Shown here: piece by piece, positions 3,675 to 18,417 of the stretch | How the letters are laid out: every line of letters begins with the position of its first letter | Position numbering within the stretch: the first letter of the stretch is position 1 | NCBI GenBank assembly: GCA_965214605.1 | Contig: OZ243961.1 | Span: 2,688,001-2,752,000 of the forward strand | Direction: 5' to 3' | DNA length: 64,000 nucleotides | From: an uncultured Candidatus Binatia bacterium | GTDB lineage: Bacteria > Desulfobacterota > Binatia > Bin18 | Program-made: the position numbers and the translations under genes | The notes under the pieces: model-generated | The model's input: the letters and a program-made list of their open reading frames with translations, nothing else | What the model was told of the DNA's origin: nothing | Databases searched by the model: none

Positions 3675-3718
3675 GTGGTCGATGATGATCACCGAGGCTA
3701 CATGAGATCATCGGTCCC
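3675..3718 (-). repeat. Degenerate copy of dispersed ~44-bp palindromic element, spanning the recX stop
   Basis: Minus strand GGGACCGATGA-N22-TCATCGACCAC; each arm 9/11 to GTGAACGATGA / TCATCGTTCAC. Confidence 0.45.
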
Positions 3719-4237
3719 CTTTTCGTCCTGGGGCGGACTGCCCAACAGCTGTTCGGCAAACTCGCACGAATATCCCCGCCGCACCAGCAGGCGATACGCC
3801 CGGGCATAGGTCTGCGCTTGTTGTAGCCCGTCCGCAGGAAAGCGGCTAGACAGCAGCCTGCGGGCGGCGTCGAGGTCGAGGCCTGGTTGTCGGGCTGCAA
3901 GCGTTTGCGCAATCAGGGCGGAATCAAGATGGTGGCGGAGGAGTTTTTGCCGGATGGCGGCCGGGCCAAAGCCACGTGCCTGAAAGTGCTGGGTGAGCTC
4001 CGCGGCCAGGCGGGCATCGTTGAGATAGCCCTGGCGGGTGAGGCGGTCGACCGTTTGTACCACCGCGCGTGGGCTGAAGTGGCAGGGAGGAGCTCGGCCG
4101 GTCTGTGAGAGGGTTTGTACCACCGCGCGTGGGCTGAAGCCTTTGGTACGCATCTTTGCCGCTAAGCCGGGCGCACTATAGGCTCGTTGTCCCAGCAGAC
4201 GATAGGCGTAGTCGAGAGCGGTCAGAGTGCCAGTCAT
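3698..4237 (-). CDS. recX: Regulatory protein RecX with a 20-aa in-frame duplication-insertion
   Basis: AYRLLGQRAYS, GYLNDARLA, GPAAIRQKL, LVRRGYS; upstream of alaS. FSPRAVVQT occurs twice. Confidence 0.9.
   Translation of the reverse strand: MTGTLTALDYAYRLLGQRAYSAPGLAAKMRTKGFSPRAVVQTLSQTGRAPPCHFSPRAVVQTVDRLTRQGYLNDARLAAELTQHFQARGFGPAAIRQKLLRHHLDSALIAQTLAARQPGLDLDAARRLLSSRFPADGLQQAQTYARAYRLLVRRGYSCEFAEQLLGSPPQDEKGTDDLM
4053..4139. repeat. Repeat-spacer-repeat unit: 27-bp identical direct repeats around a 33-bp unique insert
   Basis: GTTTGTACCACCGCGCGTGGGCTGAAG at 4053-4079 and 4113-4139; insert 4080-4112; period 60. Confidence 0.95.
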
Positions 4238-6846: not shown

Positions 6847-7191
6847 GGCTCTGTCCCACCCAAAAGAAAGTCAAGTAGATTGTATGCTCTTTTGGTTTAG
6901 GATGCGCCGCTGGCTGCCCCTCTTCTTCCCGGGCGCATGGAGAATCATCGTTTATATGAGCGCATGGCTAATCCACAAACAGCTTCTTCCTGGGCGCATG
7001 GAGAATCATCGCTTTGATGAAATTGTTTATTCCTCTGAGCTTACTCGTCAAGCCGGCTCCGCCAAAGCGAATGAGTCACGTCAAACCTTGAGGGGAGCCA
7101 GGCGGTCCATTTGCTGAGAAACCTCTGCCTCCGAAAGGGGATGGCCCCATCCATCTTAGCATGTTCTTTGACAACGAATTTGACAGCAGCC
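6847..7191. mobile_element. Possible non-autonomous IS/MITE remnant
   Basis: Imperfect inverted ends GGCTCTGTC (6847) and GACAGCAGCC (7182-7191); no transposase visible. Confidence 0.2.
6922..7011. repeat. Repeat-spacer-repeat unit: 29-bp direct repeats (1 mismatch) around a 32-bp unique insert, CRISPR-like geometry
   Basis: CTTCTTCCYGGGCGCATGGAGAATCATCG at 6922-6950 and 6983-7011; insert TTTATATGAGCGCATGGCTAATCCACAAACAG; period 61. Confidence 0.93.
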
Positions 7192-18231: not shown

Positions 18232-18417
18232 TACGCTTCTTGACTTCGAGCCTCCAAGTGTCTCTGTCAATGTGGTGGTTTGGATGGTTGCGGTAGCGGA
18301 AAAACGATGGAGTGTCTCTGTTTAAGGTGGTGTGAATGGTTGCGGGTAGCGGAGGAACAACGGAGTATCTCTATTGATGTGGTGGCGTGGATGGTTGCGG
18401 TAGCGGAAAAACGACAG
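18183..18417. repeat. Degenerate tandem repeat, 53-54 bp unit (3 clear copies plus 1 decayed)
   Basis: Units start 18257, 18311, 18364 (AGTGTCTCTG...ATGGTTGCGGTAGCGGAAAAACGA); weaker copy from 18183. Confidence 0.85.

Follow-up and report, generated by a model that had tools for sequence, protein, structure and literature searches.

The window analysed here, a stretch of 64,000 nucleotides from an uncultured Candidatus Binatia bacterium (contig OZ243961.1, positions 2,688,001 to 2,752,000), contains a recX gene lengthened by 60 bp: a 27-bp segment of the gene is duplicated around 33 unrelated bases. Based on the comparisons presented below, we consider it very probable that these 60 bp arose through a single off-target event of full-site spacer integration, carried out by Cas1e–Cas2e of the genome's own type I-E CRISPR system. 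Casposons and transposons also duplicate their targets through staggered attacks followed by gap repair; the duplications known from them are much shorter (about 2–15 bp) and the element has defined ends and genes. The recX target is likewise duplicated, but the insert is 33 bp of arbitrary sequence. Off-target spacer integration and neo-CRISPR loci were reportedly described in Escherichia coli by Nivala, Shipman and Church (Nat Microbiol, 2018), with spacers from the cell's own DNA and, it is said, putative natural cases in two other species.

According to the cited passages of papers that refer to Nivala et al. 2018, the off-target events were detected in E. coli over-producing Cas1–Cas2, and an excerpt of one preprint terms the natural evidence in the two other species 'circumstantial evidence'. 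The recX locus resembles the E. coli neo-CRISPR loci in that a type I-E Cas1–Cas2 is concerned, the event lies outside the array, a repeat-length duplication accompanies a spacer-length insert, and the sites resemble the native locus. Unlike those loci, the recX case arose without engineered over-expression, lies in frame in a protein-coding gene, is polymorphic in the strain and recurs at the same bases in a second species; moreover, the genome carries many scars, which fit at least three native array geometries.

Concerning other CRISPR types, PMC6698737 describes full-site integration in vitro by Pyrococcus furiosus Cas1–Cas2 at repeat-like non-CRISPR sites, with attacks one repeat length apart and several positionally conserved bases. 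The recX target and its sibling targets, with a conserved C8 C9 and other agreeing positions, are similar to the sites in that paper; the P. furiosus events took place in vitro on plasmids, with another CRISPR type and a repeat of 30 bp, whereas the present scars lie in the chromosomes of natural genomes. Streptococcus thermophilus and S. mutans are reported to acquire spacers ectopically within their arrays. There too the integrase picks a site other than the leader-proximal repeat, but that site is reportedly a true repeat inside the array, while the recX target is unrelated coding DNA. The mechanism of off-target integration is already known, and recX is a rich natural case of it. No natural in-frame scar in a protein-coding gene and no recurrent natural hot spot was found in the full-text literature searched, a coverage outside which most subscription journals fall.

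Anatomy of the recX insertion and the native CRISPR systems

The studied genome (G000, 4.37 Mb) carries the recX scar on contig C1, at C1:2692053. The two 27-mers, at window positions 4053–4079 and 4113–4139, are 100% identical with a start-to-start spacing of 60, and have no other occurrence in the genome; the 33 bases between them (4080–4112) occur once, the next-best match being 15 nt (blastn-short). That 27 nt should recur exactly within 60 nt is far beyond what chance would give. The extra bases preserve the reading frame and add 20 residues, FSPRAVVQT-LSQTGRAPPCH-FSPRAVVQT. An earlier inspection of the letters, referred to below as the sequence-only reading, had described identical 27-mers around an unrelated 33-mer, with the frame kept and FSPRAVVQT present twice, and a recheck of the sequence bore this out. 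The features are as follows.

3698..4237, minus strand: recX open reading frame of 179 amino acids with the 60-bp in-frame insertion (open reading frame list; Pfam RecX_HTH1/2/3; alignment with 20 relatives)
4113..4139, minus strand: first 27-bp target copy in the coding direction, presumed leader-proximal; FSPRAVVQT, residues 34–42 (orientation from the held-out matrix)
4080..4112, minus strand: 33-bp insert, presumed spacer; LSQTGRAPPCH, residues 43–53 (unique in the genome; native I-E spacer length; absent from relatives)
4053..4079, minus strand: second 27-bp target copy in the coding direction; FSPRAVVQT, residues 54–62, continuing into the canonical helix (AlphaFold2 helix 56–68)

G000 possesses many cas1 and cas2 genes and four large arrays. 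Based on NCBIfam, a complete type I-E operon is present (Cas3, Cse1, Cse2, Cas7, Cas5, Cas6e, Cas1e and Cas2e), with bit scores of 291.9 for Cas1e (cut-off 215.6) and 82.4 for Cas2e (cut-off 33.15). The operon is followed by a leader and a 97-repeat array with a 28-nt repeat; spacers of 33 nt make up 94 of the 96, and the unit, 61 in 94 of the 96 intervals, is 60 in one of the others and 84 in the other. The recX insert thus has the length of the native I-E spacer, and the type I Cas1–Cas2 of matching geometry on which the sequence-only reading depended is present in intact form. Other arrays, with repeats of 36 nt and 37 nt, are each accompanied by a cas1 and cas2 of their own and have units of 66 and 73–89. 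A different species of the same genus, G007, contains Cas1e and 225 repeats, which differ from the G000 repeat by one base, approximately 30 kb from its own recX.

Some native spacers match the genome that carries them. Two spacers of the I-E array (C1:2301762-2307667) match the chromosome at 33/33 (at 3170433 and 3218149), one spacer of a second small I-E array (C1:2534815-2535083) matches at 30/31 (at 2606538), and three spacers partly match spacers of the other arrays. The self-matching spacers suggest that interference is tolerated or inactive. At C1:612877-613496 there is also a tandem array of period 43–44 with a 25-nt core word, located in the frame that gave a weak Pfam Cas1 match; a single copy pair lies at 176444.

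Sibling scars and the target motif

Contig C1 was scanned for direct repeats in two exact copies, 22 nt or longer, whose period is 40–140 and whose copies are separated by 15 nt or more; repeats in known arrays and those not isolated from other repeats were left out. The scan gave 33 isolated repeats, among which period 61 occurs five times, 60 once (recX), 73 five times, 76–78 six times and 66 once; these peaks coincide with the native array units. A search tolerating up to three mismatches per 27 nt gave 45 isolated near-repeats, 10 of them with a period of 60–61, and the only other period found more than three times is 73. In total, G000 contains seven exact scars of I-E geometry, recX included, with duplications of 27–29 bp and inserts of 33–34 bp (C1:91695, 500128, 711165, 1399850, 2692053, 3921609 and 4089123). 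At 711165 the scar takes the form of a period-61 mini-array with about four repeats, which the isolation filter had dropped.

In four of the six scars other than recX, the inserted bases are a copy of sequence found far away on the same chromosome:

Scar C1:500128: insert source 974074-974106, 33/33
Scar C1:1399850: insert source 1691840-1691871, 32/32; the first base differs
Scar C1:3921609: insert source 1215783-1215815, 33/33
Scar C1:4089123: insert source 915880-915912 on the other strand, 32/33

In G007, of which the first 2.4 Mb (66% of the genome) were scanned, there are three more scars of I-E geometry besides that in its recX, as well as two mini-arrays of period 61. Two of the three are of the 27+33 form, like recX. 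A source was found for the insert of one of the three, the 27+33 scar at 1833927, whose 33-mer matches 1665370-1665402 of the same genome at 33/33; the adjoining repeat bases do not match. This copied 33-mer establishes a 27-bp duplication with a 33-bp spacer as an outcome of the I-E system. The two mini-arrays (G007:C1:1495966-1496100 and 1498082-1498300) are nearly identical, with three to four repeats each; their repeat word differs from the native I-E repeat, and an apparent duplicated segment hosts both.

Scars of other geometries are also found. Those fitting the arrays with 36- and 37-nt repeats have duplications of 32–42 bp and periods of 66–78 (C1:916264, 1880827, 1967748, 2103855, 2197075, 3068860, 3676203 and 4250365; C6:7607). 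Three scars of these geometries have copied inserts, matching at 37/37 (period 73), 34/35 and 30/30 (a 36+30 scar), and off-target scarring seems to be the work of two or more further adaptation modules as well. In-silico excision of scars in search of restored longer frames was uninformative at most sites and indicated a possible split gene at C1:3921609.

Two other repeats lie in the window. At 6922-7011 there are two copies of a 29-nt word, differing by one mismatch and set 32 nt apart (period 61); the word begins with CTTCTTCC, in keeping with the target motif described below, and it may be an older I-E scar. The stretch between its copies partly resembles the word, which is compatible with a local tandem repeat. 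At 18281-18414 a 27-nt word recurs with period 107 and a diverged third copy in between, as an intergenic tandem element of about 53 nt.

Concerning the target sequences, each of 11 sites was read in the orientation that agrees better with the native repeat, with the 5' border as anchor. CC stands at positions 8–9 in every one of the 11, as it does in the native repeat; in random genome 28-mers treated alike this occurs at 0.083 per site. Several further positions agree in 7 to 9 of the 11 sites, and whole-word identity to the native repeat is 10 to 16 of 27–29, against a null mean of 8.5. A held-out matrix was built from nine other scars and the native leader–repeat junction, with both recX sites excluded. 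Its score for the recX target is 9.46 bits on the coding strand, a value reached or exceeded by 1148 of 8.62 million positions (both strands), which places recX in the top 0.013%; on the plus strand the score is 0.17 bits. The recX site is therefore probably a good target as predicted from sequence, with the recX sense strand as the repeat-like orientation. The sequence-only reading had seen the resemblance to a repeat on the plus strand, in a word running from GTT to GAAG, and on this point the matrix favours the coding (minus) strand instead.

These data bear on the possibility of a process unrelated to CRISPR, namely slippage or tandem duplication with later divergence, break repair from a template, or a footprint left by a transposon or an integrative element. 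Direct repeats around an insert are also typical of transposition and of some repair events, and no protospacer or protospacer adjacent motif (PAM) links the recX insert to adaptation. However, the insert is unrelated to its flanks while the copies are 100% identical. A transposon footprint is not indicated either: no inverted repeat was found within 4080–4112, the insert has no genome match and the duplication is 27 bp. Insertion sequences are not known to make target duplications as long as 27–29 bp, and this too speaks against a footprint. Across unrelated sequences the insert length stays at 33, the native spacer length, and scars of other geometries fit the genome's other arrays, including the 36+30 scar with its 30/30 self-copy and those with duplications of 35–38 bp and periods of 70–78. 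The copied inserts look like spacer capture from self DNA, which slippage or transposon models fail to explain. We regard a non-CRISPR process as very unlikely.

Ancestral state, allele variation and a second insertion

The recX proteins of 20 relatives (6 from the same genus, 13 from the same family and 1 from the same order) were aligned. The insert of 20 residues is absent from all 20, each of which has a single copy of the word, and at the DNA level 6 of the 7 other genus members lack the insert. A recX match was found in 52 of 55 family genomes, and only G000 and G007 have the long form. In the family genomes where both halves of the query match, these abut or overlap, as expected of an uninserted gene; where only the C-terminal half matches, the open frames are of about 155–180 amino acids, a presumably normal length. 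G006, which has the most similar uninterrupted recX, carries no insert. Close relatives therefore look as the sequence-only reading had anticipated, with one 27-mer and nothing inserted, and since they lack the insert, the insertion is the derived state.

Seven public runs from three studies hold all or part of the stretch, and the contigs of four of them (X1, X2, X4 and X5) were compared. X4 has a 14.6-kb contig that holds the whole stretch without difference, at a word depth of 13.7. In X1 and X2 (one study, 2019) and in X5 (the study of X4, 2024), contigs join 4052 to 4113, skipping exactly the 60 bases. These uninserted contigs have no other difference over about 740 bases, with 93 to 255 letters on the shorter side of the joint; the parts of the stretch without contig cover in X1 and X2 are uninformative. 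Because the 27-nt repeat is shorter than the 31-letter assembly words, the joint would require reads from an uninserted molecule. Among the other runs, X3 has a small share, and X6 and X7 resemble X5 with a word share of 0.94, a measure that does not show the allele. The recX insertion is polymorphic within one strain and not fixed; the sequence-only reading had taken it as fixed in a housekeeping gene, which the uninserted allele in the contigs of three of the four compared runs contradicts. Its proposal to confirm the junctions was answered in part: the X4 contig spans both, at contig level only and in a run that is possibly the source of the assembly.

G007, whose recX DNA is 81% identical to that of G000, has an insertion of its own in the gene:

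L017 1829-1916 (G007:C1): G007 recX scar; own 60-bp insertion with an in-frame TAA, downstream part otherwise intact

Here a 28-nt word (or 27 nt and one ambiguous base) is perfectly repeated with a spacing of 60, and the duplication starts at the base homologous to the start of the G000 duplication. The insert of 32 or 33 bases is unrelated to that of G000, has no second copy in G007, G000 or G006, and its TAA interrupts recX. As read from the sequence, this stop codon truncates the predicted RecX, and the otherwise intact downstream part suggests a recent knock-out. The recX copies are identical within each genome and differ at three positions between the two, the substitutions specific to each genome being present in both of its copies. 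Cas1e is found in four of the eight genus genomes (G000, G001, G005 and G007); two of these four and none of the four without Cas1e have a recX insert, numbers that are too small for a test, although the direction points the right way for a CRISPR origin. Since the G000 insertion is polymorphic and derived, the two events are independent, and the independent hit in a sister species makes the recX site a hot spot set by its sequence.

The same comparison bears on whether a single integration long ago, in an ancestor shared by G000 and G007, made a two-repeat mini-array, in which the spacer was later replaced and the repeats homogenised. In both species the structure occupies the same bases and has a period of 60, and period-61 multi-spacer mini-arrays exist in both (G000 C1:711165; G007 1495966 and 1498082). 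Against this, the uninserted allele of X1, X2 and X5 is otherwise identical over the compared bases, so the G000 event is recent; G006 has no insert, and the copies of each genome carry their own substitutions. An ancient origin is, in our judgement, still less credible than a process unrelated to CRISPR.

An assembly or sequencing artefact, with 60 bp that the organism's DNA does not contain, would agree with their absence from three of the four compared runs (X1, X2 and X5) and with the sole carrier, X4, being perhaps the assembly source. But a separate contig build of X4 carries the insert, in the 14.6-kb contig at the depth given above; a chimera would not be expected to yield a perfect 27-bp duplication around 33 new bases; and the same anatomy is found at the same site in the G007 assembly, and elsewhere with copied 33-mers. 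We give this explanation hardly any weight. Finally, that a different adaptation module of the genome, one serving the 36-nt or 37-nt-repeat arrays, made the insertion is negligibly probable: several cas1 and cas2 genes are present and some scars are attributable to those systems, but their array units are 66 and 73–89, their repeats 36–37 nt and the duplications in their scars 32–42 bp, and 33-nt spacers together with a 28-nt repeat are found only in the I-E array.

Origin of the insertion and its consequences

What is observed is the anatomy, an ancestral allele free of the insert, a native system that matches, sibling scars with 33-mers copied from elsewhere, and a target motif common to the sites. 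From these we infer that Cas1e–Cas2e was the enzyme, and the chemical steps would have followed in this order. Cas1e–Cas2e, loaded with a 33-bp prespacer, would have mistaken a 27-bp stretch of recX, repeat-like and partly palindromic, for a CRISPR repeat. Staggered attacks at both borders of this stretch would have joined the prespacer in between, and gap repair would then have duplicated the 27 bp. The event is a recent one and remains polymorphic in the strain. A natural off-target spacer integration had been proposed in the sequence-only reading, and the geometry, the relatives, the G007 hit, the sibling scars and the target motif all lend it support.

Several results weigh against a spacer integration by Cas1e–Cas2e. 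The recX duplication, at 27 bp, is one base shorter than the native 28-nt repeat, and the similarity of the recX target to that repeat is modest when taken alone (13/27, P(>=13) = 0.032). No source of the 33-mer was found: the genome itself gave only the 15-nt match (blastn-short), exact-pattern searches of viral, genome and metagenome contig collections gave 0 each, blastn against phage and plasmid records gave no match, and in the 54 other family genomes there were 0 occurrences with up to 3 mismatches. As these searches found no source, no PAM can be read for the recX insert, and the protospacer and PAM that the sequence-only reading proposed to look for were met with neither in the organism's own genome and family nor in the viral, metagenome, phage and plasmid data. 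The flanks of the sibling-scar protospacers and of the three self-matching native spacers show no consistent PAM; CCTTGA is the 5' flank of two sibling protospacers but not of the remaining two, and the flanks of the three native spacers are different again. The scar scans covered G000 and G007, both of which bear Cas1e. The evidence from the runs consists of assembled contigs, and X4, as the possible source of the assembly, is in that case not independent.

Looking at the protein, the recX open reading frame matches the RecX-type three-helix architecture in Pfam, with two modules above the 26-bit cut-off (RecX_HTH1, residues 7–43, 34.9 bits; RecX_HTH2, residues 73–113, 42.4 bits) and the third below it (RecX_HTH3, residues 121–158, 23.5 bits). 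The lengthening by 20 amino acids noted in the sequence-only reading agrees with the comparison: 179 amino acids here, about 155–160 in relatives. An AlphaFold2 model of the 179-residue protein, based on a 21-sequence alignment, is helical throughout (mean predicted local distance difference test score, 84.2; predicted template modelling score, 0.73). Low confidence is confined to residues 31–50 (block means 55 and 54), and a confident helix, 56–68, starts in the second copy and leads into the normal fold. According to the model, the insert is probably a loop-out between helices of the first RecX three-helix module that leaves the fold intact, and the lengthened RecX may still be working. From their translations, the open reading frames adjoining recX look like alanyl-tRNA synthetase and chorismate synthase.

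A wider reading is that off-target mutagenesis by at least three adaptation modules is an ongoing process across the genomes of this lineage and no rare accident, with spacers, often self-derived, inserted into repeat-like sites, genes broken or lengthened and growing mini-arrays seeded, for instance the period-61 clusters of G000 and G007. We put this forward tentatively, as slightly less probable than its opposite. If it is true, recX would count as a genuine hot spot, with the gene disrupted in G007 and lengthened in frame in G000, and recX messenger RNA with sense pseudo-repeats might be cut by Cas6e or yield CRISPR RNA; of the public runs that hold the recX stretch, 0 are on record as RNA.

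The evidence for natural off-target integration and for its cost has so far been thin. One natural system here combines a polymorphic event, the same housekeeping gene hit in two species and traceable inserts at sibling sites, and the recX case shows that the adaptation machinery is able to lengthen a protein in frame. About a dozen natural sites yield a target rule, C8 C9 together with further positions that resemble the repeat. The birth of CRISPR arrays, the autoimmune or mutational burden of adaptation and the measuring of repeat length by the integrase are thereby made testable questions.
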